Counted from the first letter of the stretch, positions 5,381-59,311 are shown. The stretch is DNA of 59,311 nt from an uncultured Methanosarcinales archaeon (GCA_964597775.1 CAZQZJ010000003.1:1-59311); one strand, 5' to 3'. Program-made: numbers and translations. Notes: generated from the sequence alone by a model not told the origin.

Positions 5381-8047
5381 GTGGGGATGTTTATTGATTA
5401 TTGCGAGGTTAAGAAAAAGGCTGGCCGTTTCTATGCATATCTCTCTTTTCGTGATAAGAATCTCTCCTATGGCCCAGTATTTCTTGAATATCCATCAATA
5501 GTTAAGTGGGGTGCGTATCCTTACAAAAAAGAGTGCTTGTTAACTCATACCTTCTCTGCAATGCATCTTGATGATGATATGGTAAAAAAGGTAGTTGGTT
5601 ATATAAAAGAAGCATATCCAAGCTGGAATCTCGCAGAGAAGAAGAGGCCTTTTCATGTAGTGCAGGTTTCAAATGCACCAATCCATGATGTACTAGGTTT
5701 ACCAGATTGGATAAAATCATTATTTGAACCTGGCCATTATTCAGAGCAACTAAAATGGCAACTTGGTTGGCCAAATCGAAGAGTTGAGATAGATGAGATA
5801 TTACAGAATGCATTGGTGTTGCATCATAAAATTAATACAACATATGATGAGATTCATAAGAAATGTAGGGGCAGAGTAGATAAAATAAGACCTATTATAA
5901 AAGATAATCTTGCTGAGCTTAGTATTTTATTATCTGAGGTTGATATAAAGAATAAAGCTGTTATCGATACTAGAGATCATGTTGTTGATATATATTTAGA
6001 TTCTTGTTCAGGTTTTCGCCTGCTTTGGCAACAATTAACTGCTGATGAAGTAAAAAGATTGCCATGGTGTTTTCTTGACACTGAAAAAAAGTTTTATCAG
6101 TATAAGGAATTAGCAAGTAACTGTATTGTTTCATTGCTATTTAAACAATGCGATGGCTCTCTAATTGGTGAGATACATACAACTGAGAATCCTGCTAAGG
6201 ATGCATTTGCTGTTGCTGCAGGTGAGGTGTCTGCTGATTTTAGTATTCTACGATATGATAATGAGGCTGGTATGGTACAGGGTGTTAGACAGAAAATAAA
6301 AGAGATGAATCCTTATTTATTGATAGGACATAATATTGGATATGATATAAAGGAGTTAAATAATGATAAGAATTTTAGTGTTGGAATAAGAAATACCAAA
6401 CCTGCACGTCGTGGGTTTTTTAGATTTTTAGATAGATTCCTGTGCCAAGGCATGGAGATTGTAGATACGTATGCATTATTTAAATCACGTGATGTGGATT
6501 ATGCGCGTTATACATTAGAACAGGTTGCTGGATTTCAGAAGATTATCAATTATGAAAAACTAATGCAACTTATTGAAGAGGGAATGCAAGGAAGGCGTGA
6601 ATCACTAAATAATGTATTTTCTTATGCTGGCAAGGATGTGCTGGTTTTATACCATATGTTATGCCATGGCCAGGAGGCAAAACATGATATTCTTAGTGAC
6701 TTGGTTGTTGAGTGCAATACATTTGGCAACTCGCTTACTGAGGCTGCTCATAATGTGGCAAGTGTTTCTAAATTAAGAAAGAAAGTTTTTTATGAAGAAA
6801 CTGGTTTATATCGTGATTTATTAATGCCGCTTAATCTGCGTTTAGCCAGAATAGAGGCGGCAAGACATGGAATTGGAGAGTTAGTGCATGAGGGATTGGG
6901 TTTAGACGCTTATCAAGAACGAGGACTTATAAAAAATGTTCAGAAGTTCTATGTAAACATAGAATCTAGTATGCCTCCATTGCTTTACACAAAATGTGAT
7001 ATTATAAGTTATCTTGAGCATACCTGGGGTAAACACGATTCTCGCCGAAAGTTTCGCCTATCCCAAGTCTTGCGTGCCTTTGCTCAAGATGTTTGGATTG
7101 ATTGGTGGTTTTGTATACAAAAAAATAGAAATCTTGAGGATAAGATTAAGGAATGCCAGCCTGAGTTGATGCAGACTTCTCTTGAGAAATTTCGCCAGGA
7201 TAAAGAATGTTATGAATTGTTTAAGAAAAATAATAAAAATAATAAGCGTCAAAATCTTAGATTAGTTGAAGAATATATCAATAATAACCAGATTTGTGCT
7301 GACCCTTTTTTGCTCAAACACATCTTTGAGCTTGCTATAACATCTGATAGTGCAGATCATCGCTTTTTTGGCGAGCATGGCTTCTCAACAAAACAATGGC
7401 ATGAGCGCTTAAAGGGTTCATTGCGTTTTATTCATGAGTGGATTATGCAACATGAGGTTGTGTATTATGATAATCGAATCTTGTTTGTAAATGGCAACCC
7501 TGATATTCCCTGCTATGTTCATCTTATTCCTTTGGGAAATCGTGATGTGTTACGTGGAGAGTATGGCTTATTATATAAGGAACGTGGTTCATATCGTGGT
7601 TTGGAGATTAAGGAGCACCCAACAAAAAATAATTACTTATTTGATATGGAGCAGAATGCTGCCATTACTGATGCACTCTTAGAAAATGATTTTGAAAAGG
7701 CATGTGGGATCTTGTTTAGTGGTGCGCTTGCACTTAAGAATGGCACAATTGAAAAGAAGCTGTTGTTGTATAAAGAAAATGGAGAGGATTTTACCTTTTG
7801 TGGTGTTGATATAACTGGAACAAGGAGTATGTCTATAGAAGAGGTAGGTAATGGTCTTGAGGATTTTCTACCTAATCTAGAATGGTATGCTCATAAGTCG
7901 TTTGGTGTGAGTAAACAGGGTGCTGCCTTTAGCCAGGGACGCCAACTTGCGCCTTTTTTGTTTTGGAATCTTTCAGATAACCAACGGTTGCATATCAAAA
8001 AAAGATTATCACATATCTGGTTTTCGAATCAGCAGTTGCTTTTTTGA
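5381..8047 (+). CDS. Family B DNA polymerase-like protein; exonuclease motifs present, polymerase motifs degenerate
   Basis: ExoI FLDTE, ExoII IGHNIGYD, ExoIII YAGKD. Motif A-like FYVNIESSMPP and motif C-like VVYYDNRILFV lack the canonical DxxSLYP and YGDTDS. Confidence 0.7.
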   Translation: MGMFIDYCEVKKKAGRFYAYLSFRDKNLSYGPVFLEYPSIVKWGAYPYKKECLLTHTFSAMHLDDDMVKKVVGYIKEAYPSWNLAEKKRPFHVVQVSNAPIHDVLGLPDWIKSLFEPGHYSEQLKWQLGWPNRRVEIDEILQNALVLHHKINTTYDEIHKKCRGRVDKIRPIIKDNLAELSILLSEVDIKNKAVIDTRDHVVDIYLDSCSGFRLLWQQLTADEVKRLPWCFLDTEKKFYQYKELASNCIVSLLFKQCDGSLIGEIHTTENPAKDAFAVAAGEVSADFSILRYDNEAGMVQGVRQKIKEMNPYLLIGHNIGYDIKELNNDKNFSVGIRNTKPARRGFFRFLDRFLCQGMEIVDTYALFKSRDVDYARYTLEQVAGFQKIINYEKLMQLIEEGMQGRRESLNNVFSYAGKDVLVLYHMLCHGQEAKHDILSDLVVECNTFGNSLTEAAHNVASVSKLRKKVFYEETGLYRDLLMPLNLRLARIEAARHGIGELVHEGLGLDAYQERGLIKNVQKFYVNIESSMPPLLYTKCDIISYLEHTWGKHDSRRKFRLSQVLRAFAQDVWIDWWFCIQKNRNLEDKIKECQPELMQTSLEKFRQDKECYELFKKNNKNNKRQNLRLVEEYINNNQICADPFLLKHIFELAITSDSADHRFFGEHGFSTKQWHERLKGSLRFIHEWIMQHEVVYYDNRILFVNGNPDIPCYVHLIPLGNRDVLRGEYGLLYKERGSYRGLEIKEHPTKNNYLFDMEQNAAITDALLENDFEKACGILFSGALALKNGTIEKKLLLYKENGEDFTFCGVDITGTRSMSIEEVGNGLEDFLPNLEWYAHKSFGVSKQGAAFSQGRQLAPFLFWNLSDNQRLHIKKRLSHIWFSNQQLLF

Positions 8048-21807: not shown

Positions 21808-22587
21808 GTGGTTATGGTTTTAAAGAAACAACTTTTGTTTATTCTTCTCTGGCCAATAATCGCTGCATTACTATCTTTTTTGTTAAAAGCAAATACGTTG
21901 GCTTCAACATTGCTTTTCTTTGGAATTCCTGCAGTATATCTTTCTTTCCTAAAAAAAGACTGTGTGAGAATGGTGACAATATTTTCTGTAATATTTAGCA
22001 TTCCATTTGCTATTATTTTGGATTATGTGATGGAAATTACCGGCGGATGGTATATTCCGAAATCGGTTTTTGACCCTTTGCGGTTGTTTGGATACGTGTC
22101 TCTTGAACAGTTGATTTGGCTGTTCTTGTTCATGTACCTTGTTGGAATTTTTTACGAAGTGTTTTTTGACAAGAAGTGCACGCATAAATTGAATACGCCG
22201 AAACTCAAATATGCGATTTTTGGACTTGTGGTATTTTTTGGAATGTTCATAATTCTGCATATTACAAAACATGAGTTACTTAAAATTAACTTTTTCTACT
22301 TAAAATTCGGAATTATATTGGCACTTCTCCCATTTTTATTCGCACTTTTCCATTTTCCTGATCTTTACAGCGCCATGTTAATTATTGGTAGTTATTTCGC
22401 TTATTTATCATTTATTTACGAAATTACTGCGCTGTCATTGGGGCAGTGGACTTTTCCTGCAGTTGATCAGTTTATTGGATTTGTGAATGTTGGCGGCGTG
22501 ACTTTTCCTATTGAAGAGTTCTTGTTTTGGATTCTTTTAGGCTCACTTGCCACACTGACATATTACCGCTATTTTGGAGAGAAATAA
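21808..22587 (+). CDS. Tandem lycopene cyclase-domain membrane protein
   Basis: Two repeats of D/E-x4-G-x-W...G-x-P/S-x-E-E/Q (LDYVMEITGGWYIP...GYVSLEQ; YEITALSLGQWTFP...GVTFPIEE). Confidence 0.65.
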   Translation: MVMVLKKQLLFILLWPIIAALLSFLLKANTLASTLLFFGIPAVYLSFLKKDCVRMVTIFSVIFSIPFAIILDYVMEITGGWYIPKSVFDPLRLFGYVSLEQLIWLFLFMYLVGIFYEVFFDKKCTHKLNTPKLKYAIFGLVVFFGMFIILHITKHELLKINFFYLKFGIILALLPFLFALFHFPDLYSAMLIIGSYFAYLSFIYEITALSLGQWTFPAVDQFIGFVNVGGVTFPIEEFLFWILLGSLATLTYYRYFGEK

Positions 22588-22956
22588 AGAAATTGCCTGA
22601 AAACTGACTATCCCACCCTTCGCTTTGTTCACTCCGCAGCAAGCTGTGGTGTATTGGTCAGTTTTCTCGCTTCGCGACTGGCAATTTATATAGGAAATAA
22701 CCTTAATTTTAGGATATTTCACAAACGAAAGTAAGGTTATTTCCTAATAATCAAATCACTTTAATAATGGTAAAACATCTGATAATTAAAGTGATTTGAT
22801 ATAATTTCAGAATTGGGTTGTGCAACCGTAGCAGAGCTGTGTGGTATTGAACCCAATTCTGAAATAAAAAAAGTGCGCCTATTTTTGATTTGTCAAAGTC
22901 CACTAACATACTTGTTAAGCCCCAACCTATTGCAGAGGCACTGGCTTAACAAGTAC
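22583..22956. repeat. Palindromic module array Q-R1-R2-P-S-B
   Basis: Q 22583-22687, R1 22691-22746, R2 22750-22800, P 22804-22865, S-like 22866-22887 and B 22909-22956; each recurs elsewhere in the window. Confidence 0.92.
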
Positions 22957-23001
22957 CTACTAACGAAGAATTTAAATAACTCCTCATTACACTGTTAGAA
23001 C

Positions 23002-29292: not shown

Positions 29293-29436
29293 ATGTTAGC
29301 TTTCCTTTCTAAATTTATTGAGTTTGAGTACGTATTAAGCAGGGGTCAGTAGTCTGGTCAGTTGGTAGAGGGCATTCTTGCAGGACTTATCACCATTGGA
29401 CTAATCCTTATCAAACTGATTCATCGTACTTGTTAA
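29293..29436 (+). pseudogene. Possible small membrane-protein pseudogene
   Basis: MLAFLSKFIEFEYVLSRGQ*SGQLVEGILAGLITIGLILIKLIHRTC*: one internal TAG (29350-29352), a TM-like C-terminus, and a stop supplied by the adjacent repeat. Confidence 0.35.
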
Positions 29437-29685
29437 GACCCTATCTGTTGCAGAGGCGCTGACTTGTGTTTGCATTCGCAAACACACAACGCCGCTCGCA
29501 CCTCACAGAACTATTCAAAGAAACCCTCCTATCTGGAACCTCCTCGGGTTTGCGTAGAACTTCATAATAGTGCTCGCATCCTGGCACAATCGAACCCTTC
29601 GGCTTTCGCTGTGCACAAGGTCGAAATGCGACCTTGTTGCGTTCCACGCCAGCGCCTCTGCATAACACCTGGCTTAACAAGTACG
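29425..29685. mobile_element. 261-bp non-autonomous REPIN/MITE-like element built from two inverted module-B ends
   Basis: 13-bp terminal IR CGTACTTGTTAAG/CTTAACAAGTACG, subterminal IR TGCAGAGGCGCTG/CAGCGCCTCTGCA, flanking direct repeat ATTCAT (29419-29424, 29686-29691), and a GC-rich multi-hairpin core. Confidence 0.8.
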
Positions 29686-46244: not shown

Positions 46245-46330
46245 AAAGACCTACACAATAAGAGTAGTTTATAATGATTAAGAAAGAAGAACTTTGAATA
46301 ACCCATTGATAAAAAAATACCCCACAATGA

Positions 46331-46595
46331 AAAAATGGGAGCGCCCCTTTTAAACCACCTTCTGCCTTGCTTTATTTCAGAATTGGGTTCAATACCCCAC
46401 AGCTCTGCTACTGTTGCACAATCCGATTCTGAAATTAGAAATTGTTGGTCGCGAAGCGAGAAAACTGACCAATATCCCACAGCTTGCTGCGGAGTGAGCG
46501 AAGCGAAGGGTGGGATGGTCAGTTTTCAGGCAATTTCTTTATTCTTGGTACAAAAACTTAAGTTGGCCAGAGGCCGACATTAAACGTTTTTTTAT
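46331..46595. repeat. Palindromic module array S-P-Q-A (P and Q inverted relative to the 22.6 kb array)
   Basis: By manual alignment P (46374-46435) differs from 22804-22865 at 4 of 62 positions and Q (46439-46543) from 22583-22687 at 8 of about 105; A at 46548-46595. Confidence 0.92.
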
Positions 46596-46670
46596 AAGTA
46601 ACTAAAACACCCAAGTTTAAAAATGATATATCATTATTAGTATTGGATCAATTTGGATTGATCATCTGCA

Positions 46671-48515
46671 ATGATATACCAACCACTACCAACCACACTT
46701 AGATCATTATACCAATCAACTGCAAAGGCTATTGTAGGTCTTACCCTTATTCAGTCCATTGCATTTGCTGGTAATATACCCCAAGCCAACCGCGTTGAGG
46801 TAGCTGATTACTGGAATAGCAACAAAGTCCAACAAATACTTATTGACACCTACAAAAAAAAGAACCCTAAAAACTATACAAGCATTGTAGAATCCATTAA
46901 CAATGCAGCAAACAGCCTACGAGTCAAGATACGAACAACCAATGGAAAAACTGTTGAATTCAAATTACCAAACGAAAATACCTACAGACCAATTCTTACA
47001 GATCAAGAGGTAGTAGGAGGTATTGATAATATTGTTCAAGAATCAGATTTTGAAGAAAAGAATCTCCTAGCTATTCCAACACCAGAGCCATCTCCTACAA
47101 AACCTAGTCTTGAAGAACCCAGACCAGAACAAACAAATGCCACCTATCCACAGATAACCCCAGAACAATTTACAAGCAGACTTGAAGAGATCAGCAAAGA
47201 ACTAATCAATTCCCAAAGACACAAAGCAAATGCTAGACCATACCAAGTGATTCTTACTGATGCTAAGACGTTATGGTACAGCTTTTTAAGAACAGCATAC
47301 CCCTATGTTGCAGAACAAGACATCCCCTTATTTTACCAATATATAATCAAGAGCCCTTATTTTGTCAATCGTGAAGAAAAGCTCCTTCCAACATATAATA
47401 AAGTGGTAGTTTCCGAGCTTGCAAAATTACTAAACCATACCCAAGTAATACAGCAGTATGCACCAAAATTCTCAGAAAAGATACGAGAACAGCTAACACT
47501 AGAAATAAAGATCCTTGAAGAACACAAAAAGAGAATCATACAAAAAGGAAACTGGGCAGAGAATGTCACTGACAAATTCATATTTACAGAGGAGATCAGA
47601 GATTCGCATGTAGAAAATATCAAAAAGGTCGTGATTCGGGCGGAAAGCTACCTACCACGAGATAGCGATGGCAACATCATACAAAAAGACAAACTGGACA
47701 GAAATGGATGGGTTTACTACCATGCCAACAGCGCAATCCGAACCAACAACCCATTTGAAAATGATTTTACACACGCAGAATTTGGCACTACCATGATCAT
47801 GCACGCATTCCAATACAGAAACGAATTTAGCATGGATGCGTGGATCAACCCAGACACATTTGCATGGTACATGGACATGCACCAACGCATAGGCCATGTA
47901 CTTGATGACATGTTTGACCATGTCCAAAAACACACTGACTTACGCGAATATCTCCAAACTTGCCTACAACCAGAACACCTCACTATAAACACTGACTATG
48001 ACGGCAAACCACACTACAAATTTGGATTTACCACTACCAAAGAATATGTTGATGGTTTTGCAGCTGCTCGCAAACATATGGATGATATCTACCAACAAAA
48101 CACATCACTAGCTGGATTTTTGGAAAGATCCTTTCTCAAACTCCCTATACATGTACTTGATCGTTCCTTTATTAATCTCGGAAAAATCGGTGAAGACATA
48201 GGAGAAGGAAAAATCGCACGACTTGCCTCAACAGATGTATGGAGACTACTTAGCAACTACTTTTTTTTTAAGAACTATGAAGCCATGCTACATGGAAACA
48301 CAGACGCCCTTGCATCACACATTCTTTTCGGAGCTGGAGAAACATCACCAAGAGATGCTGCAGAAGGATTATACAATAATTTGACATCATTTGCACGAGA
48401 CAGTGTTGACATGAAAGGACGGCTTGCAGCTGGACTTAGCACCTATTTTAACACAGACTATTTAATCAATGGAGTTCCTGCCTCATATCGGTTTTTACAT
48501 GATTCAATACGATAA
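46671..48515 (+). CDS. Secreted hypothetical protein: shared N-domain, Pro linker and a ~450-aa unknown domain
   Basis: Signal peptide-like N-terminus (...QSIAFA); N-domain near-identical to that of 49784..50557; His-rich helical C-domain. Confidence 0.85.
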   Translation: MIYQPLPTTLRSLYQSTAKAIVGLTLIQSIAFAGNIPQANRVEVADYWNSNKVQQILIDTYKKKNPKNYTSIVESINNAANSLRVKIRTTNGKTVEFKLPNENTYRPILTDQEVVGGIDNIVQESDFEEKNLLAIPTPEPSPTKPSLEEPRPEQTNATYPQITPEQFTSRLEEISKELINSQRHKANARPYQVILTDAKTLWYSFLRTAYPYVAEQDIPLFYQYIIKSPYFVNREEKLLPTYNKVVVSELAKLLNHTQVIQQYAPKFSEKIREQLTLEIKILEEHKKRIIQKGNWAENVTDKFIFTEEIRDSHVENIKKVVIRAESYLPRDSDGNIIQKDKLDRNGWVYYHANSAIRTNNPFENDFTHAEFGTTMIMHAFQYRNEFSMDAWINPDTFAWYMDMHQRIGHVLDDMFDHVQKHTDLREYLQTCLQPEHLTINTDYDGKPHYKFGFTTTKEYVDGFAAARKHMDDIYQQNTSLAGFLERSFLKLPIHVLDRSFINLGKIGEDIGEGKIARLASTDVWRLLSNYFFFKNYEAMLHGNTDALASHILFGAGETSPRDAAEGLYNNLTSFARDSVDMKGRLAAGLSTYFNTDYLINGVPASYRFLHDSIR

Positions 48516-48517
48516 AA

Positions 48518-48566
48518 GTACTTGTTAAGACCCTATCGGTTGCAGAGGCGCTGGCTTAACAAGTAC
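48518..48566. repeat. Stand-alone module B (49 bp)
   Basis: GTACTTGTTAAG-ACCCTATCGGTTGCAGAGGCGCTGG-CTTAACAAGTAC, 2 nt after a stop codon. Confidence 0.92.
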
Positions 48567-48601
48567 CAATAGAACTAATCTTTTTAAAGTTCGAAATCTT
48601 T

Positions 48602-49699
48602 ATGCTAATCATGACTTATTCCAACCTTTCCCCATTACGACCATACATACGACAAATAAGATTACACCTTAAACAAAGATATCTTGGTTTTATTGGAGGC
48701 TCGCTTGGAGAAGATAGCGAACGCAAGGTGCTAACAAATGGAATTATTCGTGATGCCATGATCTACCTAAAATCACAGAATACCCTTATCACAACAAATA
48801 ATTTACAAAAGATCTTATTTGACACACAATGTAGATTAAATTATGAATTTCTTGAAAGCCACAGCCCTACCTATATCTTATTTGATAAGTCGGCTCAACA
48901 CGATGCTATCAAAGCACGCAATATATTTATTAAACAGAATATACAGAATGATACTGCAATATTTACTGAGACATCTACACAAGAACAAGATCCTATTTAT
49001 CAAGTTGATAATAGCATCAACATAACACCAAACAAACAAGAAGCTCAGAAAACACAAACACAACAACAAGAAGGAATTAGTACAGACCATTCTTCACAAC
49101 CTAATAACACACAACAAGCAAGATATACACTAAACCTTTCCCCACCACCTAATGAAAACGAGAGATTTCACAAACTCTACAAAAAATTAGATTATTTGAT
49201 TCTTGGAGGCATCGTAGGTATTGCTGCTGGCGCAATAAGCGTATACACCCTATCCCAGCTAGGAAAGGTTACACATTACGACCTACGCAGCAGATTGCAT
49301 GAAGTGCGCAAAGAAATAGTAGGATCAAAAAATACACTAGATGCTAGTAAGCAAGTAGAACTTGTAAAAAAGATTGATACTATCACAAATCTTGTTCTGA
49401 AATCTGCAACAAAAACTACATCACTTGAAACACAATTAAGAAAAGTTGAAAAACAACTTGGAGATATTCAGCATGTTGTTACTCAAGACAAAACAACAAA
49501 AGAATTACAAACCCTACAACAACGTCTTAATAATATATATGCCCAATTATCTGACCTTAAAAAACAAAAGAATACTGAGAAAACACCAGTTTCTATAATA
49601 CATTCTTCTGAGACAAAAAAAAGACAAGATACTACAAACAAACCTGTTGACTCAACTCTTCTAAAATTACAGAAAGCACTCAAGACTGCAGGCTTCTAG
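48602..49699 (+). CDS. Single-TM coiled-coil protein
   Basis: Gln-rich linker, TM YLILGGIVGIAAGAISVY and C-terminal coiled coil. Confidence 0.75.
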   Translation: MLIMTYSNLSPLRPYIRQIRLHLKQRYLGFIGGSLGEDSERKVLTNGIIRDAMIYLKSQNTLITTNNLQKILFDTQCRLNYEFLESHSPTYILFDKSAQHDAIKARNIFIKQNIQNDTAIFTETSTQEQDPIYQVDNSINITPNKQEAQKTQTQQQEGISTDHSSQPNNTQQARYTLNLSPPPNENERFHKLYKKLDYLILGGIVGIAAGAISVYTLSQLGKVTHYDLRSRLHEVRKEIVGSKNTLDASKQVELVKKIDTITNLVLKSATKTTSLETQLRKVEKQLGDIQHVVTQDKTTKELQTLQQRLNNIYAQLSDLKKQKNTEKTPVSIIHSSETKKRQDTTNKPVDSTLLKLQKALKTAGF

Positions 49700-49783
49700 A
49701 TTTTTTAAATGATGATTTTCACCTCAACTTTATAAATATGTTACTACTTCTAAAAAGTAATTATTAGATTTGGGGGGGTTGCA

Positions 49784-50557
49784 ATGAAATATACAACATC
49801 AGCACAAGACTTGTTTACATCATTATACAAAACAACTGCTAAATGTATAGCAGGAATTACCCTACTCCAATCAATTGCATTTGCAGACACTATACCACAA
49901 ACATATCGAGTTGAAGTTGCTGATTATTGGAACAGCAACAAAGTCCAACAAATACTTATTGACACCTACAAAAAAAAGGATCCTAAAAACTATACTGACC
50001 TTGTAGAATCCATTAACAATGCAGCAAACAGCCTACGAGTCAAGATACGAACAACCAATGGAAAAACTGTTGAATTCAAATTACCAAACGAAAATACCTA
50101 CAGACCAATTCTTACAGATCAAGATGTAGTAGGAGGTATTGATAATATTGTTCAAGAATTAGATTCTGAAGAAGAAACCACAGGATTTGAATACAAACCA
50201 TTGCCACTTCCTTCTCCAGAACCTACGCCAAGCCCTGCACCACAGACTCCTCCTTCTTATTCTGATTCACGTCCTAAGATTCCTTTGGATGTTCCTGGTC
50301 CAGAATATGACAGCAGATTAAATAACACAGAAAAAAGTCCAGAAGAACACCGTACACGTATCAACAATGCAGTTCCTATTATTCTAGGAGGTACAATCTT
50401 ATACCTTATTTTGAGAGGAAGAGGTAGTAGCAGAAGCAACCAAGCTCCAGCAAGGGGCAGTATTGGAAGCGGTTCTGGAGGAGGCGGAGGAAGTGGTAGT
50501 GGAACAAGCCCTGGATTTAACCCAAATAATCACATTGGCCCTGGAGACACTAGATAG
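49784..50557 (+). CDS. Secreted or anchored protein: shared N-domain, Pro linker, TM and Gly-rich tail
   Basis: Same N-domain as 46671..48515; TM AVPIILGGTILYLIL; GSGGGGGSG tail. Confidence 0.85.
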   Translation: MKYTTSAQDLFTSLYKTTAKCIAGITLLQSIAFADTIPQTYRVEVADYWNSNKVQQILIDTYKKKDPKNYTDLVESINNAANSLRVKIRTTNGKTVEFKLPNENTYRPILTDQDVVGGIDNIVQELDSEEETTGFEYKPLPLPSPEPTPSPAPQTPPSYSDSRPKIPLDVPGPEYDSRLNNTEKSPEEHRTRINNAVPIILGGTILYLILRGRGSSRSNQAPARGSIGSGSGGGGGSGSGTSPGFNPNNHIGPGDTR

Positions 50558-50566
50558 GAAACACCT

Positions 50567-53539
50567 ATGAGATCAACTATATCAGGAATTGGACTACTGC
50601 TTATTATCACTACATTTACCTTAGTTTTAGCAACTCAAACACAAGGATTCTTAATGCGCACAGCTGGATTTGACTTTAACACAAATCTTTCAATCCCAAG
50701 CACCATCACTTTTGGCGGACAAAACTTTAACGCCAACCCAGTTGTAGACATTCCTAATGTTCAAGGAAACCTTGCACAAGAAATCACACATGCATCACCT
50801 GGATATATTACTGATACTGACGATATTTTCTTTGACAACCAACTCACAAACTGCACAACACAACCCCTTTGCCAGATGAGCGTGTTCTTACCACCAGGAG
50901 GATTGTTTAACACAACATGCAAAATTGACACCATATTTAATGATTATAACTGCATTATCACAAATAATGGACTTGAGAGCAGATTCTTCTGGAAACCAAC
51001 AGAAAACAGAGTAACAGTACACAACTTCTTAGTTAGCCAAACAGAATCACAAATCAATCCACCACCATCAATTGCTGCTATAGTAAACCCACTAAACGGC
51101 ACTGCACCACTAGCAGTCACATTCACAATCTCTATCACAGACAACAGCCGAGTTGAGAGTGCACAGATTATTTTTGGTGATGGAACTACGCAAGGCATTG
51201 GAACAACAGCGAGTGTAAATCACATCTACACTAATGGAGGAAGCTTTAAAGCAATCATTGTAGCGTTTGATGACAGAGGCTTATCAGCAACACGGAATTT
51301 TACCATTACAAGCACAGGACCACCTGCACCTGTATTTAACAACACCATTCTCTTTACACTCAATACGCAAAGCGTTGATTTTAACACCAACCAAACCATC
51401 TCACCAAGCACAATAATATTCAACAATTTTTTAACAACCACTACAAAAACTGCAAATCCACAAGCAATATTTAGTTTGTCAAGTAACACCATCGTAGAAA
51501 TAACACATACAGCTACAGGATATCTAAATGATACTGATGACCTTTACCTTGATTTCCAACTACCTACATGCTCAGACACAGTGTGCAATATATCATCACT
51601 AAATACCAACGGACAACTCTTCACCACCAACTGCTTACTCAACACAACACCAAACCAATACCTGTGCACTGTAAAAAACCAAGGACTCACAAGCAACTTT
51701 ATCTACAACAATGGCACAACCACAGCAACCTACACCAACTTTCTTGTAGCACAAAACACAACACAAAATGGTACACAAAACCAAGCACCAAATATCACAG
51801 TAGCCTCAATAAATCCAACAACAGGAAATGCACCACTCACACCATTCTTTATACACAATGTAACTGACGATGGACAAGTAAACTCAGTACTCTGGATATT
51901 TGGAGACGGCACAACTCAAAACTTTGGCTCAAACGCAGCATTTACACATATATATAATACACCAGGAACATACACAGCAACAATAGCTGCATTTGATAAT
52001 CAAGGACTTAGCACATCTAGAAATTTCCAGATTATTGTTAATGGCACAAGCACAAACACACCACCCACAATCATCTTAGCAAGCGTAAACCCACTTAACG
52101 GAACCATACCACTCACTGTAAACTTTTCTGCAAATGTAACAGATGACACTGGAATCTCAAATGTGATCTGGATATTTGGAGATGGCCAACAACAAGCTGT
52201 ATCAGCAAACAGCCAAATTACACACCTCTACCCTTTTGCTGGAACGTTTCAAGCAACCTTACTAGCTACTGACAATCAAGGTGCACAAACAACAAGAATA
52301 TTCACCATCACAACCACAAATGCAACTACACCTGGAAATCAAACAAACCAAGCACCAAACATTACTGCAAGTGTTATTCCTAATGTTGGAAACGTTCCAT
52401 TAACTGCACTATTTAATGCAAATGTAACAGATGATGGAAGTGTTGCAAGAGTAACCTGGTTTTTTGGCGATGGTCAAACACAAAACGTTTCAGCACACAG
52501 CACCATCTTCCATACTTATACAAATCAAGGAAGCTTTATTCCAGTTATCCTAGCAACAGATAACCAAGGAGTATCAAGTTCACGATCATTTAGCATCACT
52601 ATTAACCCACCAAATCCAAACAACACAGCGCCCCACATATTTGCAACAGTAACACCACTTCGAGGCAATCTTCTTTTAACTACAACATTTTTTGTTAATG
52701 CTACAGATCCAGATGGATTTTCCTCAGTTGCATGGTTTTTTGGCGATGGAACAAGCCAGATTGTAAATCCGCTTAGTGCTATTAACCATATCTACACAAC
52801 TGTGGGAAGATTTATTGCACAACTTGTTGCCATAGACACTTTTGGCCTTGCATCATTTCTAAATTTCACCATTGATGTGGCAGCAAGCGGAGTGAATCAA
52901 ACACCATTACTTGGACCAAACATTGCTGCAAGCGCAGAACCATTATCTGGCACAGCACCACTCATAGTCACCTTTACTACAAATATTACACCAAACAATG
53001 CCTCTATTGTAAGCGTTGTGTGGCTGTTTGGAGATGGATCATTTCAAGGAGTAGGAAATAATAGCCAAATCACACACACTTATACACAACCTGGATTGTT
53101 TACTGCACAGATTATAGCAACAGATGCACAGAACAAAACAACTGCTAAACAATTTGTCATTTCTGTAAATGCAGACAATGCCAAGACTACTGAGGAAGAA
53201 CCTCTTGTAAAACTTTTTGTAAACAGCATCTTTTTACCAAATGCCTATGATCTTAAACCAGGAGAAGACCTTGAAGGTGCTATCACATTTAAGAGTACTG
53301 GAGATTTACGACTCAATAAGATGCACGTTACTATGATGATCCCTGAACTAGGTATCTACACACGAAAAGGCCCTGTTGATCTAGGAGGCAAGGGACGATC
53401 TATTAACATCCCTATCAGACTCCCTATCCCAGATGATACACAACCTGGTGAATATACTATCCGAGTAAGTATAAGCAATGATGATACACGACGAACCATT
53501 CACAGAGAAACTGTGATTCGCGTGAGCAATGGTGATTAA
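50567..53539 (+). CDS. Surface protein with six PKD domains and two Cys4 repeats
   Basis: Signal peptide, six P-x-G-x-x-PL...(W)xFGDG...H-x-Y units and a C-terminal Ig/CARDB-like domain. Confidence 0.9.
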   Translation: MRSTISGIGLLLIITTFTLVLATQTQGFLMRTAGFDFNTNLSIPSTITFGGQNFNANPVVDIPNVQGNLAQEITHASPGYITDTDDIFFDNQLTNCTTQPLCQMSVFLPPGGLFNTTCKIDTIFNDYNCIITNNGLESRFFWKPTENRVTVHNFLVSQTESQINPPPSIAAIVNPLNGTAPLAVTFTISITDNSRVESAQIIFGDGTTQGIGTTASVNHIYTNGGSFKAIIVAFDDRGLSATRNFTITSTGPPAPVFNNTILFTLNTQSVDFNTNQTISPSTIIFNNFLTTTTKTANPQAIFSLSSNTIVEITHTATGYLNDTDDLYLDFQLPTCSDTVCNISSLNTNGQLFTTNCLLNTTPNQYLCTVKNQGLTSNFIYNNGTTTATYTNFLVAQNTTQNGTQNQAPNITVASINPTTGNAPLTPFFIHNVTDDGQVNSVLWIFGDGTTQNFGSNAAFTHIYNTPGTYTATIAAFDNQGLSTSRNFQIIVNGTSTNTPPTIILASVNPLNGTIPLTVNFSANVTDDTGISNVIWIFGDGQQQAVSANSQITHLYPFAGTFQATLLATDNQGAQTTRIFTITTTNATTPGNQTNQAPNITASVIPNVGNVPLTALFNANVTDDGSVARVTWFFGDGQTQNVSAHSTIFHTYTNQGSFIPVILATDNQGVSSSRSFSITINPPNPNNTAPHIFATVTPLRGNLLLTTTFFVNATDPDGFSSVAWFFGDGTSQIVNPLSAINHIYTTVGRFIAQLVAIDTFGLASFLNFTIDVAASGVNQTPLLGPNIAASAEPLSGTAPLIVTFTTNITPNNASIVSVVWLFGDGSFQGVGNNSQITHTYTQPGLFTAQIIATDAQNKTTAKQFVISVNADNAKTTEEEPLVKLFVNSIFLPNAYDLKPGEDLEGAITFKSTGDLRLNKMHVTMMIPELGIYTRKGPVDLGGKGRSINIPIRLPIPDDTQPGEYTIRVSISNDDTRRTIHRETVIRVSNGD

Positions 53540-53661
53540 GTAAATGAAGACGCTATTAAATACACTATTAAGTAGGTATTACTGTTCACTACTACAAAAT
53601 AAGAATAATGAAAACCTTTAAATAGAAGTAGGCTTTCCAGCCTGCATTGAGGGGTATTATC

Positions 53662-54960
53662 ATGAACCAAAAAAGATATTCATTAGGCATTTTATTGGTG
53701 ATGGTCATATCACTTTTTGCAATATCTTTAGTACACGCAGCACCTATTGCGATTCGCATTGATGAGGTTAGAGTAGACGACTTTGTTCTATTGCCTAATG
53801 AAGTAAATAGACTGGATATTCAACGCGGACAAGAAATCCCTGTTGACATTAAACTTACTGCTCTTAATGACACGAAAAATGTTGAGGTTGAAGCATTTAT
53901 CTCAGGCTTTGAATTCAATGACATTGAACCTATACAAGACTCAACTAGACTTTTTGATGCAGACACCAATGTATCCTATATCAAACGCCTTCGATTACGC
54001 ATCTCAGATGATGTAGACGAGGACGACTACAAACTTCGAATCATTATATCTGATAGAAACGGCGACCAACTTATTCAAACATACAGCCTTAAACTTGACG
54101 TACCAAGACACAGCCTACGGCTTGAAGATGTTATTTTCACACCACAAGACAACGTGATTGCTGGCAAGGCATTACTAACTACAGTTCGATTAGAAAACAA
54201 AGGAGAAAAACGCGAAGATGACGTACGCGTTACTGTTTCAATTCCAGAATTAGGAGTACAAGCAACAGATTACATTGATGAATTACGTGTCAATGACGAA
54301 GAAGAAACAGAAGAACTCTTCCTAAAAATCCCTGCAAATGCCAAATCAGGAAAATACCTTATCCGAGTAGATGTTGAATTCCAACAACGCCATAACAAAC
54401 TCTCAGCAACCAAAACAATCAATATCATTGGAACTGAAGACGGCGCTACAACAGGAATTGATGGCACTAAAGAAACACCAAAAGCAATAATTAGTGTAAA
54501 CTCACAACTTGAAAGCACCCAGGCAGGAAAATCAGCCATATTCCCTATCACTGTACAAAACAATGCAGCAGGAAGCAAAATTGTTGTAGTTACTGTCTCT
54601 GGCACTGATGAGTTTGCTGATATACAAATCAACCCAACAGGAACAATGATTATTGACAGCAAGGAACTAAAACTCTTCACAATCCAGATTACACCATATG
54701 AAGATGCACTATTAGGAACAAAAGTATTCAAAGCTACAATTAAAGTTGGGGACTCAATATCTAAAGAGATTCCACTTACAATCAATATTACAGAACCAGT
54801 GGCATCAAGTATGCAAACTGTAAAAAAAATTCTTGAAGGTGCATTAGTCTTTTTTGTAATCCTCCTTGTTGTCATAGGTCTTGCAATAGCATCAAGAAAA
54901 CAACGAGAACAAAAAGAAGGTTCATCGTCATCTATCACCCAGATGCAGACCTATTATTGA
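53662..54960 (+). CDS. S-layer-like Ig/CARDB-domain protein with a C-terminal anchor
   Basis: Signal peptide, beta-rich domains (VRLENKGEKREDDVRV) and C-terminal TM; ATG at 53662. Confidence 0.8.
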   Translation: MNQKRYSLGILLVMVISLFAISLVHAAPIAIRIDEVRVDDFVLLPNEVNRLDIQRGQEIPVDIKLTALNDTKNVEVEAFISGFEFNDIEPIQDSTRLFDADTNVSYIKRLRLRISDDVDEDDYKLRIIISDRNGDQLIQTYSLKLDVPRHSLRLEDVIFTPQDNVIAGKALLTTVRLENKGEKREDDVRVTVSIPELGVQATDYIDELRVNDEEETEELFLKIPANAKSGKYLIRVDVEFQQRHNKLSATKTINIIGTEDGATTGIDGTKETPKAIISVNSQLESTQAGKSAIFPITVQNNAAGSKIVVVTVSGTDEFADIQINPTGTMIIDSKELKLFTIQITPYEDALLGTKVFKATIKVGDSISKEIPLTINITEPVASSMQTVKKILEGALVFFVILLVVIGLAIASRKQREQKEGSSSSITQMQTYY

Positions 54961-55059
54961 GTTCTTACAAGGTCATACAGAAGATAAATAGGAGGATGCT
55001 TTGTTGGGAATGGAAAGAACCCTACCACACATGAGCACCTATGGGGAAATATTGCAACG

Positions 55060-57702
55060 ATGAAAAAGCTAACCTATTATGGACTAATCATCCTCATCAT
55101 ATTCTTATCAGTAAAGGCTGCACTAGCACAAGGAATTGATATAGAAATCACCACATCACAATTACCATCTCCCCCATGCACGCCACAAATCTTTGATCTG
55201 AACATTATCAATCTCGAAACTGAATTTATTGATGAATACACCTTTAATTTAGACCAACTCAATGATTTCGCCACCTTTTCTAAACCCTCTCTAACACTTG
55301 CACCAGAACAAATTGGAACAACACGATTAAGTATTATCCTACCATGCGACCAATACGGACGATTTGACATACAACTTCAAACCAAAAACCAAGGCAGCAA
55401 CGAGATATTTCTAACACCACTTATTTTTGAAATCTTACCAACAGGCATTCCAAAGATAGCACCAGATGTTGATATTATTATCATCCCAGAAAATAAAAGT
55501 CAAGCCAAGATTAGAGTAAAAAACCTTGGCAATGAAGATACTACCTACAAGGTGAGTGTAGAGGATGCTGATTTTGTCAATGCATCAGTTACCCAAATCA
55601 GCATACCAGGCGGTGAAGAATCATCTTTTAAACTTATTATTGACCCACCAAAAGAACTCAGATTTCAAGACTACCCAATAACCATTGTATTACAGACCAC
55701 ATCCACTGGAATTGAGTATGCACGCCAGATCATTCTTAGACACCAAAAAGAATCCAAACTTAAAACACTCTTCACACAACAAATCATTTCAATCCTTGCT
55801 AGCATATGCTTAATAGGACTAGCAATATTTGGAACCACCAGACTCAAACACCACCTTAACAACACAAAAGATGAACGATTACAACGAAGATTAGAACGCA
55901 AAGCACAAAAAGAAGCTGCAAAAGAAGAAAGACGCCAAACAAAGAAGCAGAAAAGACTTGAAAACATAAGACAACAACAAGCAAAGGAATTAGCTAAACT
56001 TACTCTCAAGGAAGAAAGACAATTAGCACGAACCAAAGCCAAACACGAACAATGGCACACAGCACTTATTCCTATCTTAGAAAAAGAGATTAAACAAGAA
56101 AATCTAGTAATACCAAAAACTTCACAGGATAGACCAGGAAGAAAATTATTTTGGCTAATCACTACAATTATTGTTATCTTATTAGGAATAGGAGGATACA
56201 CTATTCGTGATGTCCTACCTGAATACCTTATCTTTATTACCAGCGGATTTTTAATGGGAATTACATGCCTTTTACTCTACAAATTCATAACTAAAAGACG
56301 AACTGAATGGCTAAAAATAAAACTCTTTAATGAGGTTCACACACTTAAACAACAACTGCGTGAAAACCTCACAAGAGAAAATATTGTTGTAAAAAAAACA
56401 GATATTAAATTATTACGCGGATCTCACACCAAACAATGGCTTGTACTTGGCATATTTATTATTATCCTATTTGGAATAAGTTTAACATCCTGGCTTTTTA
56501 GAGAAACCATAGCAAACCAGGCATTGATGCTAACTCTAGCAACAGCAGGTTCTGCAACACTTCTTTTTATCTTAGGATGCATTAGCACTTATCAGCAACA
56601 CAAAAATACAACCATCACCCCATTAGGAGACATTCCTACAAATAGACTTGTAAACCTTAACACACACCACAACAGTGGCCTAACAAACTGCACTATCAAA
56701 ATAAAATCAAGCACTGAAGGACTTATTATTGGCACATATATACACCACTCACAACCCACATTCACTGACCCAGACGGAATTCCATACAAATTCATAGAAC
56801 TACGATCAAATGCAGACAGAAACATTGAAAGAATACAATTAACATTTTCCATACCAAAATCCTGGCTAAAACACAACACCATAACAAAAGAAGCAGTCAT
56901 ACTACAACGCTACAGCGGAGGACGATGGAAACCGCTTACTACACAAGAAATAAACGAAGACCTAACAAAAATTATATACAACGCTGAATCTGAGGGCATT
57001 GGCTTTTTTGCTATTAGCGGCAAATCAGAACCCAAACCAAAACCAACAAACAAGCAACCTCCTACTGAACCTGAAATAAAGATTCGACGAAAGATTCTAG
57101 CACCTGAAAAGGTTGACGCACTTTTTGAAACCAGAACATCAAAAAGAATGCTACCAACAAAAAAAATAGCCATTATACTCGGAATCTTACTTATCCTCCT
57201 TAGCCTGGTAGCAGGTTCATACTATCTTCTCCTCCAACAGATACAGATTCAACCAAAACAAACAACAATTGATACAACACTAGAAAATCTAAGCAACGAA
57301 ATTTCTCAAACCACTAGAGAGATTGCTGGTATTACAAATTTATCAGGCGGCATACCAAACCAGCTTATTAATGGATCTGCAACCCTAATTAACCTTAACC
57401 AATACTTCCAAGACCCTGAACAAGAATCACTAATCTTTTCAAACACACCTGCAGAAAACCTTACTATTTCCTATGAAAACGGTATTGCAACTATTAACTC
57501 AAAACCAGGATTTAGTGGAGATGAAATCATCTTATTTACAGCAACTGACCCTTATAACAACAGTGTATCATCAAACCCAGTAATTATATCAATAATCCAG
57601 CAACCCACACAAAAAGTTATTTCTTCAAACCTGCTAATTATTATTGCCTTTGGATTAGTCTTCATTACCCTAATTATTGCACTCTTATTCCTTCGACGCT
57701 GA
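55060..57702 (+). CDS. Multi-pass surface protein with a PGF-pre-PGF-like domain
   Basis: Signal peptide, two Ig-like domains, TM, charged coil, two TM hairpins, IPKSWL...LQRYSGGRWKPL...GFFAIS, cadherin-like domain and C-terminal TM. Confidence 0.8.
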   Translation: MKKLTYYGLIILIIFLSVKAALAQGIDIEITTSQLPSPPCTPQIFDLNIINLETEFIDEYTFNLDQLNDFATFSKPSLTLAPEQIGTTRLSIILPCDQYGRFDIQLQTKNQGSNEIFLTPLIFEILPTGIPKIAPDVDIIIIPENKSQAKIRVKNLGNEDTTYKVSVEDADFVNASVTQISIPGGEESSFKLIIDPPKELRFQDYPITIVLQTTSTGIEYARQIILRHQKESKLKTLFTQQIISILASICLIGLAIFGTTRLKHHLNNTKDERLQRRLERKAQKEAAKEERRQTKKQKRLENIRQQQAKELAKLTLKEERQLARTKAKHEQWHTALIPILEKEIKQENLVIPKTSQDRPGRKLFWLITTIIVILLGIGGYTIRDVLPEYLIFITSGFLMGITCLLLYKFITKRRTEWLKIKLFNEVHTLKQQLRENLTRENIVVKKTDIKLLRGSHTKQWLVLGIFIIILFGISLTSWLFRETIANQALMLTLATAGSATLLFILGCISTYQQHKNTTITPLGDIPTNRLVNLNTHHNSGLTNCTIKIKSSTEGLIIGTYIHHSQPTFTDPDGIPYKFIELRSNADRNIERIQLTFSIPKSWLKHNTITKEAVILQRYSGGRWKPLTTQEINEDLTKIIYNAESEGIGFFAISGKSEPKPKPTNKQPPTEPEIKIRRKILAPEKVDALFETRTSKRMLPTKKIAIILGILLILLSLVAGSYYLLLQQIQIQPKQTTIDTTLENLSNEISQTTREIAGITNLSGGIPNQLINGSATLINLNQYFQDPEQESLIFSNTPAENLTISYENGIATINSKPGFSGDEIILFTATDPYNNSVSSNPVIISIIQQPTQKVISSNLLIIIAFGLVFITLIIALLFLRR

Positions 57703-57776
57703 AAAGAATTCTTAGATGAAAAATGATGACTCACATATCAAGATTTATAAACCAAACACAGATTCAGAGCATAGCC

Positions 57777-57932
57777 GGGGCTGTAGTATAACTTGGCTAG
57801 AATAGGTGGCTCCAGTCATGGAGCGATGAGCTGCAGTAATCTGTAGCAATGAAATAAACCTATGGTCTGTTGAAGCCTTTGCTTCAAGGAAGAGACCACC
57901 GGATCAGGGTTCAAATCCCTGCAGCCCCACCA
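57777..57932 (+). tRNA. tRNA-Trp(CCA) with a canonical 37/38 intron (57816-57894) and encoded CCA
   Basis: GGGGCTG/CAGCCCC-A-CCA; anticodon stem GGTGG/CCACC; BHB with central helix CTCC/GAAG (one mismatch) and intron stem CATGGAGC/GCTTCAAG; TTTATAAA about 30 nt upstream. Confidence 0.95.
57816..57894 (+). ncRNA. Intron-encoded box C/D-like guide RNA (putative Cm34/Cm39)
   Basis: TGGAGC-g-ATGA and TGGTCT-g-TTGA: antisense elements place C34 and C39 opposite the fifth nt upstream of D-like boxes. Confidence 0.55.
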
Positions 57933-57965
57933 TTTCTTTAACCACAATTTAATTTATGATTTAAT

Positions 57966-58553
57966 TTATGCATACGGTGCCTTTCGCTGTTCTTCCCTAC
58001 GATTACGCTGCATTGTAGCCATAAGCCGCTCAAGCGTATCAATCTTAGCAAGCAATTCACGCTTGTTCTTATCCTCAGCAAGCAACATCTTATGATGCTG
58101 CGTAAGCTCAAAATCCTCTTTTTTAATTACACCAACAACCTCAACAAGACGAGATATATGCGTGTTAAGTTGGACAAGATTTTTTCCAACAGATTCAATA
58201 TCAGCCTTAAGATTTATTACATGTGTTTTTTCTACCTCAAGATTTTTACCATACTTTAGAAATTCATCAGTTAACTCCTTTTCAAACCTCTCAAGCATGA
58301 TCTTCTGCACTCCTTTATTAATAACCCTAAACTCATCAAGTTCTCTAAGAAGATCTGATTTAAACTTCACAAGATTCTCATGATAACTTGTAAAAACCTC
58401 TTCTTGATCTTTATTCTTCTTTGCAAGCACACTAATCTCTTTTTTGTACTGAATAGACAATTCAACAACAAGCTTTTTTTGCTCAACTAACTCCTTGCTA
58501 AGAGAATCAATACCCTCCTTAAGATCAAGGATCTCTTTTATTTTGCCAAACAT
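57966..58553 (-). CDS. Coiled-coil hypothetical protein
   Basis: 195 aa, continuous heptads, ATG start. Confidence 0.8.
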   Translation of the reverse strand: MFGKIKEILDLKEGIDSLSKELVEQKKLVVELSIQYKKEISVLAKKNKDQEEVFTSYHENLVKFKSDLLRELDEFRVINKGVQKIMLERFEKELTDEFLKYGKNLEVEKTHVINLKADIESVGKNLVQLNTHISRLVEVVGVIKKEDFELTQHHKMLLAEDKNKRELLAKIDTLERLMATMQRNRREEQRKAPYA

Positions 58554-58573
58554 AACTAAAGAATAAATAGCTC

Positions 58574-58945
58574 CTATTTATTAGTTGATGATAGTAACCC
58601 TTGCTCTTTTCCGCTGTTAATGATTTCTTCAAGTTGCCCTTGCTTTTTCTTAAGATCTTCAAGTTCTCGCTGCATCCTAATCATATAATGCTGTGCCTGT
58701 TCCTGATGATTCTGGGGATCAGATGAGTAGAATCTTGTGCAGGTTGGACACTCGTACCAAGAGATATCTTCAATTAAATCAGTTGCATATGCAAGCATGG
58801 TTTTATCAATGGGACAAGATGGGGATTTTTTGTTTATGTGAGCATATTGAAACTTTGTTGGATAAACAAGATGTTTATCATCTTGTGAGTTATTCTGATT
58901 AGTCATAATCCCATGAAAAAATATGAAGTATTTATTTCTTTGCAA
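58574..58945 (-). CDS. Zinc-ribbon plus coiled-coil small protein
   Basis: CPID...CPTC followed by a coiled coil; true start probably MTNQNN. Confidence 0.7.
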   Translation of the reverse strand: MQRNKYFIFFHGIMTNQNNSQDDKHLVYPTKFQYAHINKKSPSCPIDKTMLAYATDLIEDISWYECPTCTRFYSSDPQNHQEQAQHYMIRMQRELEDLKKKQGQLEEIINSGKEQGLLSSTNK

Positions 58946-58987
58946 AATTTCCGTAAGAATTATATACTTGCCTGATCATGCTTTATC

Positions 58988-59224
58988 ATGGCAAACTTTA
59001 TTGAAAAGATCCAAAAAATAAATGAACTTGCAACTATTCTACTTAAGTCTGGCAAAGCAAAAGACTCTGTTGAAGCACACCAAATGGCTGAAGCTACTAT
59101 TGATGGCGGCACTGACATGGCTGACTTTAACAAAAACGCCAAAAAAACTGTTGATGAATTTCAGAGATACGGCGATGCAGTCAGAAAAAATGATATGAAA
59201 CAACCACGTGACTGGAAATCCTAA
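58988..59224 (+). CDS. Small helical hypothetical protein
   Basis: 78-aa ATG ORF, divergent from the previous gene, with an AT-rich promoter-like region upstream. Confidence 0.65.
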   Translation: MANFIEKIQKINELATILLKSGKAKDSVEAHQMAEATIDGGTDMADFNKNAKKTVDEFQRYGDAVRKNDMKQPRDWKS

Positions 59225-59226
59225 AT

Positions 59227-59311
59227 TATAAAAAATGCTTAAGTAGGCCAGAGACCGACATTAAGCGTTTTTGTACCAAGAATAAAGAAATTGCCTAAAA
59301 ACTTACCATCC
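59227..59311. repeat. Palindromic module array A-Q (truncated by the window end)
   Basis: TATAAAAAATGCTTAA-GTAGGCCAGAGACCGACA-TTAAGCGTTTTTGTAC followed by CAAGAATAAAGAAATTGCC..., the Q start as in the reverse complement of 46519-46547. Confidence 0.9.

Follow-up and report, generated by a model that had tools for sequence, protein, structure and literature searches.

Probable copying of a small N-terminal domain between neighbouring surface-protein genes, followed by gene conversion, in a groundwater Methanosarcinales archaeon

Two neighbouring genes of an uncultured Methanosarcinales archaeon encode secreted proteins that begin almost identically and end in unrelated ways, which raises the question of how they came to share an N-terminal domain, termed the head below. 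The genes, A and B, lie on a DNA stretch of 59,311 nucleotides (nt) (GCA_964597775.1, CAZQZJ010000003.1:1-59311; the whole of this stretch is referred to as the window), part of the 1.19-Mb genome of a small-genome groundwater archaeon assembled in 79 contigs. A preliminary description of the DNA read this layout as a possible polymorphic effector or adhesin system, with a constant N-terminal domain and swappable C-terminal payloads. Our analysis points elsewhere: the head is native to B, was probably copied from B into A, and appears to have been kept alike by recent gene conversion. The genes concerned are the following.

46671-48515, + strand: gene A, an open reading frame (ORF) of 614 amino-acid residues (aa) with a signal peptide, the putatively copied head domain, a Pro/Glu-rich linker, and a predicted all-α C-domain.
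48602-49699, + strand: the middle gene, termed mid, an ORF of 365 aa with an N-domain, one transmembrane (TM) helix (aa 198-217), and a coiled-coil-like C-terminal region.
49784-50557, + strand: gene B, an ORF of 257 aa with a signal peptide, the head, a Pro-rich stalk, a short TM segment, and a tail.

The 5' parts of A and B are joined by a direct repeat of ~360 nt at an offset of 3116 nt, called as a match at 46699-46998 / 49815-50114 and laid out as follows.

46699-47060, + strand: repeat copy 1, in A, the tract homologous to B.
49815-50176, + strand: repeat copy 2, in B, the probable source of the head domain.
46885-47008, + strand: an exact run of 124 nt, identical to 50001-50124; the run reaches 159 nt in the independent contig L016.

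Identity between the copies is uneven. The left part of copy 1 (46699-46799) has 73% nucleotide identity with B and the core (46800-47060) 95%; 240 of the 251 positions of 46806-47056 match 49922-50172 in register, including exact runs of 45 nt (46818-46862), 124 nt, and 34 nt (47010-47043). Upstream of ~46690 and downstream of ~47065 identity falls to background (7-10 of 30 positions), with the right-hand boundary of the repeat at ~47060. The longest repeat found in 2-kb stretches elsewhere is ~28 nt, which places the A/B repeat far above chance. At the protein level, A and B match with a BLASTP E value of 1e-72, their heads are 93% identical, and the similarity stops at the Pro-rich linker; on these points, i.e. 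two secreted proteins with a near-identical N-terminal domain, unrelated C-termini, and divergence at the linker, the preliminary description was accurate. Two further candidates were rejected. A structured RNA behind the conservation of the 124-nt run found no backing (z = +1.25 and +1.56 on the two strands), and neither did co-transfer of the Pro-rich linker with the head: the DNA score of 20 is not above that of shuffled controls (16.6 ± 2.8), so the resemblance of the two linkers is compositional only.

To which of the two genes does the head belong? In the window genome it occurs in exactly two copies, A and B. When 1.84 billion cluster representatives were searched exhaustively with protein A (HMMER phmmer), four proteins matched: A, B, and two A-orthologues, P0002 (535 aa, from G002, one of the two same-genus genomes G001 and G002) and P0003 (501 aa, from ERR7850083). 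Word-indexed searches with A, with B, and with an A profile gave self matches only, the A and head profiles found no match among JGI metagenome contigs and IMG/VR, and among 401 genomes of the order, the head profile matched the window genome alone. A head search of 101 related genomes yielded weak matches only, one of which, in G002, proved real. This only other relative is a single-copy, diverged head in the B-orthologue of G002, 30-37% identical to the B head of the window and giving reciprocal matches to both A and B in the window genome; the protein that carries it has the layout of B, namely head, Pro-rich stalk, short TM segment, RGRG, and a Gly-rich tail. The survey of C-terminal partners of the head that the preliminary description had called for was thus carried out (1.84e9 representatives, 101 and 401 genomes), and essentially only the two copies in the window came to light, an outcome that the description had itself named as refuting its reading.

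Since the G002 B-orthologue has the head, diverged to this extent, the head is native to B and, judged from sequence comparison, ancestral to it. For gene A, whose parts are listed here, the orthologues give another answer.

46671-46769, + strand: signal peptide of A (aa 1-33), Sec-type, with a predicted cleavage site AFA/G (cleavage at the slash) read from sequence.
46770-47057, + strand: head (N-terminal) domain of A (aa 34-129), with the predicted order α-α-α-β-β-β-α.
47058-47165, + strand: linker of A (aa 130-165), acidic, Pro-rich, and native to A.
47166-48512, + strand: C-domain of A (aa 166-614), ~450 aa, predicted all-α.

P0002 aligns with A only from A residue 139 onward (42% identity), and P0003 matches A with 37% identity over the C-domain. 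Both consist of a signal peptide, an acidic Pro-rich linker, and the C-domain, without the head. In a three-way alignment the ~100-residue head of A appears as a clean insertion between leader and linker, and the SLEEP motif of the A linker falls opposite the residues with which the mature A-orthologues begin. The three proteins are roughly equidistant (42, 37, and 44% identity), their C-domains are collinear across the three lineages, and mid directly follows A in all three contexts (mid-orthologues at L009:4476-5681 and L015:1723-2160). Contig L009 of G002 is fully syntenic with the window, with AglB (-), a geranylgeranyl-reductase (GGR)-like FAD protein (-), and orthologues of A (535 aa), mid (401 aa), and B (>273 aa, cut by the contig end). 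Because both A-orthologues are headless, the C-domain is the resident part of A and the head is the newcomer. The polarity of a constant N-terminus with variable C-termini is thereby reversed: it is the C-domain that is conserved (37-43% in the two other lineages), in proteins that have no N-domain. The head in A was either gained in the window lineage or lost elsewhere.

The slot itself is not constant. In G001 (contig L051, G001:C18, 6408-9153) the interval between the GGR-like gene and a gene for a protein with PKD domains is filled by different genes, one for a 558-aa S/T/P-rich secreted protein, followed by one for a 292-aa TM protein with a Gly-rich 'GPGF' tail that overlaps the start of the PKD gene by 4 nt. 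The 558-aa protein was considered as a relative of A and rejected, being unrelated by sequence. With unrelated genes in that place in G001, the A-mid-B slot is variable within the genus. Separately, a weak likeness to the head (27% identity) occurs at L010:4446-4655 (G037) and L011:1289-1522 (G059), in the same internal region of ~730-aa secreted proteins belonging to other families of the order; with an hhalign probability of 9.8% it may be remote kinship or chance, and it was not used.

The differences between the two copies indicate when they were last alike. Synonymous differences between A and B affect 14 of 39 codons in the leader (codons 11-49) vs 1 of 77 in the head (codons 50-126; Fisher p = 4e-7), and non-synonymous differences number 11 and 5 in the same two intervals. 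This synonymous contrast excludes a uniform age for the repeat. It suggests instead that the leader part is older and that a core of 260 nt was homogenised very recently, a pattern that speaks for an old copying event with recent gene conversion thereafter. The A leader of the window is ~67% identical in protein sequence to the B leader of the window and ~30% to the leaders of its own orthologues, so the leader was exchanged in the window lineage too, at an earlier time. As far as sequence can tell, the leader may possibly have moved from A to B while the head moved from B to A.

The A and B proteins of all genomes have in common a leader motif, [YF]-x-x-[TAI]-[AS]-K-x-[ILV], with a hydrophobic stretch after it (46671-46740 and 49784-49856 in the window; L009:2840-2940 and 5762-5890; L015:170-250). 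Within the window genome it is found in A, where it reads YQSTAKAI, and in B, and in no other ORF, and it supplies, at the 5' end, homology that was already in place. The features expected of concerted evolution are also present: the heads of the paralogues are 93% identical within the genome, vs 30-37% for the B head and 42% for the A C-domain between genomes, and the locus has synonymous homogenisation, mosaic tract boundaries, and unrelated flanks. The window B leader is closer to A-type leaders than to the B leader of G002, a weak observation given the short sequences.

A repeat of this kind could reflect faulty assembly, and the preliminary description had named a chimera as one way in which its reading would fail. 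The structure was recovered independently. Contig L016 (12,957 nt), from groundwater, matches window 46529-59311 at 99.977% identity with an identical gene order (614/365/257/990 aa), and its gene A is the same 614-aa ORF except for E113D. Identical pieces of the locus occur in Logan contigs of eight runs (X1-X8) from at least four studies. Logan contigs (k=31) break at the exact repeat, and contigs of several assemblies end inside it; unitigs connect A-specific sequence with both ends of the core, and a cluster of A-specific bases (46863-46884) lies inside copy 1 between two exact runs. Since A has its own diverged homologous flanks as well as internal A-specific bases, the repeat is not a chimera.

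Over 12.8 kb, L016 and the window differ by three single-nucleotide polymorphisms (SNPs) and are otherwise identical. Two of the three lie in the repeat, each at a position that distinguishes A from B and each with the base of the paralogue; the one at 47009/50125 cannot be phased by short k-mers. As a sign of continuing conversion, these SNPs are suggestive only. The third (A/C), at 52111, lies inside the PKD gene.

We propose, with a probability of roughly 0.65, that the head was copied from B into A and that gene conversion followed. A tract of ~360 nt of B, made up of the hydrophobic region (h-region) of the signal peptide and the head, would have been copied into A between the A leader and the native acidic linker; the recombination, homologous or homeologous, would probably have started from the leader motif common to A and B. 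Later, gene conversion (non-reciprocal homologous recombination) between the two direct copies, which lie 3.1 kb from each other, would have re-homogenised the core and left the exact runs of 45, 124, and 34 nt. Several observations weigh against this account. With only three A-orthologues, about equidistant, a gain in A and a loss elsewhere are not distinguishable by parsimony alone. The 292-aa protein of G001, considered as a B-orthologue, was rejected, as it has no significant similarity to B. The G/T site at 47009/50125 lies within the 159-nt identity, where a paralogue-matching SNP may be assembler cross-talk, and the second such SNP could agree with the paralogue by chance (1 in 3). In addition, no relative of A, mid, or B has a known function.

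An unlikely alternative to copying from B is that both genes already had the head in the ancestor of the genus, with concerted evolution ever since, and that A lost it in the lineages of G002 and ERR7850083. The near-equal distances among the three A-orthologues, which make their tree unrootable, leave room for this history, as do the occurrence of the leader motif in A and B of all genomes, indicating an old link between the 5' ends, and the clearly greater age of the repeat leader relative to the core. It requires, however, one or two clean in-frame deletions that spared both signal peptide and linker, in addition to long-term conversion; moreover, the greater closeness of the A leader to that of B than to those of its orthologues points to replacement in this lineage, and G002 has one copy of the head only. 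We rate a gain in A as about 3.5 times as probable as a head of ancient origin that was later lost. A different role for the repeat, as a recombination switch, appears quite improbable: deletion between the copies would remove the C-domain of A together with mid and fuse the promoter and leader of A to B, producing surface heterogeneity. The 124-159 nt of perfect direct identity are ample for homologous recombination, and one 913-nt contig of run X4 (depth 4.7) indeed joins the left side of A (46706-46884) to the right side of B (50001-50700), skipping 3116 nt. Depth in X4 is only 2-5x, however, and the branches leading right from A and left into B are uncovered there, so that this joint is what a k=31 de Bruijn assembler would produce by default; the joint is absent from the seven other runs (X1-X3, X5-X8), and no reciprocal product was seen. 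The X4 contig is thus ambiguous between a real deletion variant and an assembler shortcut at low depth. The preliminary description had suggested that the repeat would allow deletion or exchange; exchange is borne out by the homogenisation of the core at synonymous sites, and for deletion there is this single low-depth contig.

The common N-terminus and unrelated C-termini, the presence of one gene always directly downstream of A, and the location of these secreted proteins in a variable surface island would also suit a polymorphic effector/immunity or adhesin system, in which the N-domain serves trafficking or docking, the C-termini are payloads, and mid is the immunity protein. We consider this very improbable, because the N-domain has only two carriers besides one diverged B-orthologue, and the C-domain is orthologous, collinear, and 37-44% identical in three lineages rather than polymorphic. 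Pfam, NCBIfam, and PDB-sequence searches of A and its orthologues found no toxin domain, the 'payload' of B amounts to a stalk, a TM segment, and a tail, and the genome holds no orphan C-terminal cassette and nothing homologous to the C-domain elsewhere. Furthermore mid, a membrane coiled-coil protein of 365-401 aa, is unlike the small immunity proteins that PMC8416519 places beside toxins, and no immunity protein was recognised at the locus. Hardly credible, finally, is the idea that the repeat is an assembly artefact (a chimera or collapsed repeat) or the template repeat/variable repeat pair of a diversity-generating retroelement, although contigs of several assemblies break within it and the genome contains one reverse-transcriptase fragment. 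The independent assembly with the same structure, the unitigs linking A-specific sequence to both core ends, and the diverged flanks and internal bases particular to A contradict an artefact. For a retroelement, the mismatches are not adenine-specific (adenine in copy A at 6 of 14 core mismatches and in copy B at 2 of 14; in copy B at 16 of 27 leader mismatches), the reverse transcriptase, expected beside the template repeat, lies on another contig (C10), and what the repeat encodes is a signal peptide with an N-terminal domain, where a retroelement would have its variable repeat at the C-terminus of the target.

The proteins that would have exchanged the head have few recognisable features. 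Protein B comprises a signal peptide (aa 1-34, AFA/D), the head (35-130), a Pro-rich stalk (131-195), a TM segment (196-210), then RGRG and a Gly/Ser tail, so the TM segment and Gly tail noted in the preliminary description are present; the hydrophobic segment is 15 residues long. The five leaders of the A- and B-type proteins end in AxA- or YA-type sites (AFA/G, AFA/D, LYA/Q, SYA/Q, and AYA/C), as would be expected of Sec signal peptides. Class III (type IV pilin-like) signal peptides have a K/R-G/A cleavage motif and a hydrophobic segment of ~20 aa that is kept in the mature protein. This alternative was rejected: A reads K-A-IVGL and B K-C-IAGI, with an h-region of 14 residues up to AFA (judged by eye), which does not fit the pattern.

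The C-domain of A had been described as a His-rich domain of ~450 aa without known family; scans of A, mid, B, and their orthologues against Pfam and NCBIfam found nothing above cut-off, in agreement with the latter, but the His content was overstated, at 3.9%, with six His invariant among the three orthologues. For mid, there were weak coiled-coil Pfam matches only. No PDB sequence matched the A or the head profile with an E value under 0.16. An AlphaFold2 model of the B head reached moderate confidence (predicted local distance difference test score, pLDDT, 75.6; predicted template modelling score, pTM, 0.65), and a Foldseek search with it found no relative among PDB and BFVD structures (best E = 0.83 and 0.095, respectively, both with template modelling scores <0.4). 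The model of full-length A, based on a three-sequence alignment, was too poor for use (pLDDT 38.8) beyond suggesting an all-α C-domain. A would be a secreted protein of all-α type in which His, Asp, and Glu residues are conserved. By the sequence searches made, A, mid, and B are lineage-restricted ORFans.

What the shared head might do can be framed around its native carrier. B would be a type-I membrane protein that presents a small α/β head on a Pro-rich stalk outside the cell and works with the anchor-less PKD protein encoded directly downstream. By acquiring the head, A would gain the docking specificity of B, whether for the PKD protein, for B itself, or for a partner cell, and would become tethered to the surface instead of being freely released. 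Docking as the function of the head is perhaps possible, a tentative proposal reached purely by inference. A bolder version, which we think rather improbable, casts the head as a previously unknown docking module by which secreted proteins attach to the PKD surface array or to the B stalk of a DPANN-type cell, and the perfect direct repeat of 124-159 nt as a recombination device: conversion would retarget proteins to the surface and deletion would switch A and mid off. If this is true, the contact surface could be remodelled without dedicated enzymes.

The surroundings of A, mid, and B include the following features.

50567-53539, + strand: PKD gene, encoding a secreted protein of 990 aa with six PKD domains and without a C-terminal anchor.
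46616-46623, + strand: TATA-like box TTTAAAAA, 48-55 nt upstream of the A start codon, a putative archaeal promoter.
49729-49737, + strand: TATA-like box TTTATAAAT, 47-55 nt upstream of the B start codon, suggested by the A/B alignment.
46320-46620, strand not assigned: modular intergenic repeat array upstream of A, not specific to the locus.
48518-48566, strand not assigned: hairpin module between A and mid, with 12-bp arms GTACTTGTTAAG / CTTAACAAGTAC and a 25-nt loop.

The PKD gene starts 10 nt past the stop of B, and its product (Pfam matches PKD_4, 1.4e-61, and PKD, 9.8e-54) is a likely functional partner of B. In the alignment of the two upstream regions, TTTATAAAT resembles TTTAAAAA and stands at the same distance from the start codon. 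A sigma-70 promoter and terminator scan, uninformative for an archaeon, gave counts equal to those of shuffled sequence, and Rfam found no match in the upstream spacer. On the upstream side the neighbours are a GT-C-like protein, AglB/STT3 (6e-36), and the GGR-like FAD protein; downstream, the PKD protein is accompanied by a CARDB-like protein and a large multipass protein. A, mid, and B are a lineage-restricted three-gene cassette within a cell-surface island that extends from GGR/AglB to the six-PKD protein. Further downstream in the window, Rfam detects an intron-containing tRNA at 57777-57929 (153 nt, 38.8 bits) that ARAGORN missed; like AglB, it is an archaeal marker.

That A is bracketed by module arrays, as had been reported, is literally correct for the array upstream and the hairpin downstream, but these modules are spread over the whole genome and are not specific to A. 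The array (~270 nt) has 56 matches in the 1.19-Mb genome with varying combinations of sub-modules, and its word depth in the metagenomes of 230-400x vs ~9x for genes amounts to 25-45 times that of neighbouring genes; the hairpin has 19 matches genome-wide and an approximately threefold word depth. Dispersed repeat families also occur at window positions 22583-22957 and 29426-29465. A segment of 12.7 kb starting at A is flanked by inverted, 85%-identical copies of the array (46339-46597 and 59226-59311, the latter continuing to L016:12698-12957), an arrangement that could, from sequence, permit inversion of the segment. The window and L016 both end inside a copy, and so the modular repeat evidently breaks assemblies. 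The sole reverse-transcriptase match of the genome (PF00078/RVT_1) is a fragment at the start of contig C10 (57-482), and a full array copy, 98% identical, lies 6 kb away on that contig (6441-6713).

The locus offers, in an archaeal genome of episymbiont size, a clean, datable case of a domain probably gained and then kept alike by gene conversion. Its site, a surface-protein island beside the N-glycosylation machinery, is the genomic region in which genes for cell-cell contact are most to be expected, and the case would mean that reduced genomes still remodel surface proteins via homologous recombination between short repeats. Three lineage-restricted protein families without detectable relatives are defined: the α/β head of ~95 aa, the secreted all-α domain of ~450 aa with its His residues, and a partner with TM and coiled-coil regions. 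Removing a tempting but wrong 'polymorphic toxin' label adds to the value of the result, which lies mostly in annotation and as an evolutionary note.

Domain accretion by partial gene duplication and fusion is a general mechanism. The present case resembles it in that an existing protein gains an in-frame N-terminal domain from a neighbouring gene, inserted between signal peptide and mature part, and differs in that donor and recipient are still in recombinational contact, as the head copy remains 93% identical in protein and up to 100% in DNA.

Concerted evolution by gene conversion among paralogous surface or outer-membrane protein genes has examples in Brucella omp2a/omp2b (PMC7050475), the MgPa repeats of Mycoplasma genitalium (PMC2169797), and the shuffled receptor domains of CEACAMs (PMC8860441). 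The locus is like these in having nearby genes for exposed proteins, synonymous homogenisation, diverged flanks or orthologues, and mosaic boundaries. It is unlike them in that the common part of A and B is limited to a leader and one small domain, the rest being unrelated, in having neither an archive of donor cassettes nor evidence of antigenic or phase variation, and in its host, a small-genome groundwater archaeon in which all the proteins concerned are ORFans. Polymorphic toxin systems, which PMC8416519 outlines after Zhang et al. 2012 and Makarova et al. 2019, are marked by a conserved N-terminal region found in many proteins or strains, by C-terminal toxin domains (nuclease, deaminase, peptidase, and others) that vary between close relatives, by orphan C-terminal cassettes downstream, and by a dedicated immunity gene beside the toxin. 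With such systems A and B have in common that they are secreted, share an N-terminus, differ in their C-termini, and that one gene always follows A; they depart from these systems in the two carriers of the N-domain, the conserved C-domain, and the lack of a toxin domain, orphan cassettes, or a typical immunity gene.

A further comparison is with the VARTIG hypervariable module of Thermococcales (PMC8416519), in which a large arCOG07710-type Ig protein comes first and has a hypervariable C-terminal Ig domain. Both are archaeal loci around a large Ig-like (here PKD) surface protein, with variable membrane or secreted neighbours and recombination involved; such variation is seen here as A and mid in the window genome and G002 vs the unrelated 558-aa protein in G001. 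The lineage and the families are others, however, the Ig-like protein is downstream of B, and the recombination is intragenomic and affects the non-Ig head. The resemblance is one of locus logic only. In summary, the kind of event observed, domain accretion plus gene conversion in neighbouring surface-protein genes, is well known, whereas the proteins in which it occurs are new and very narrowly distributed.

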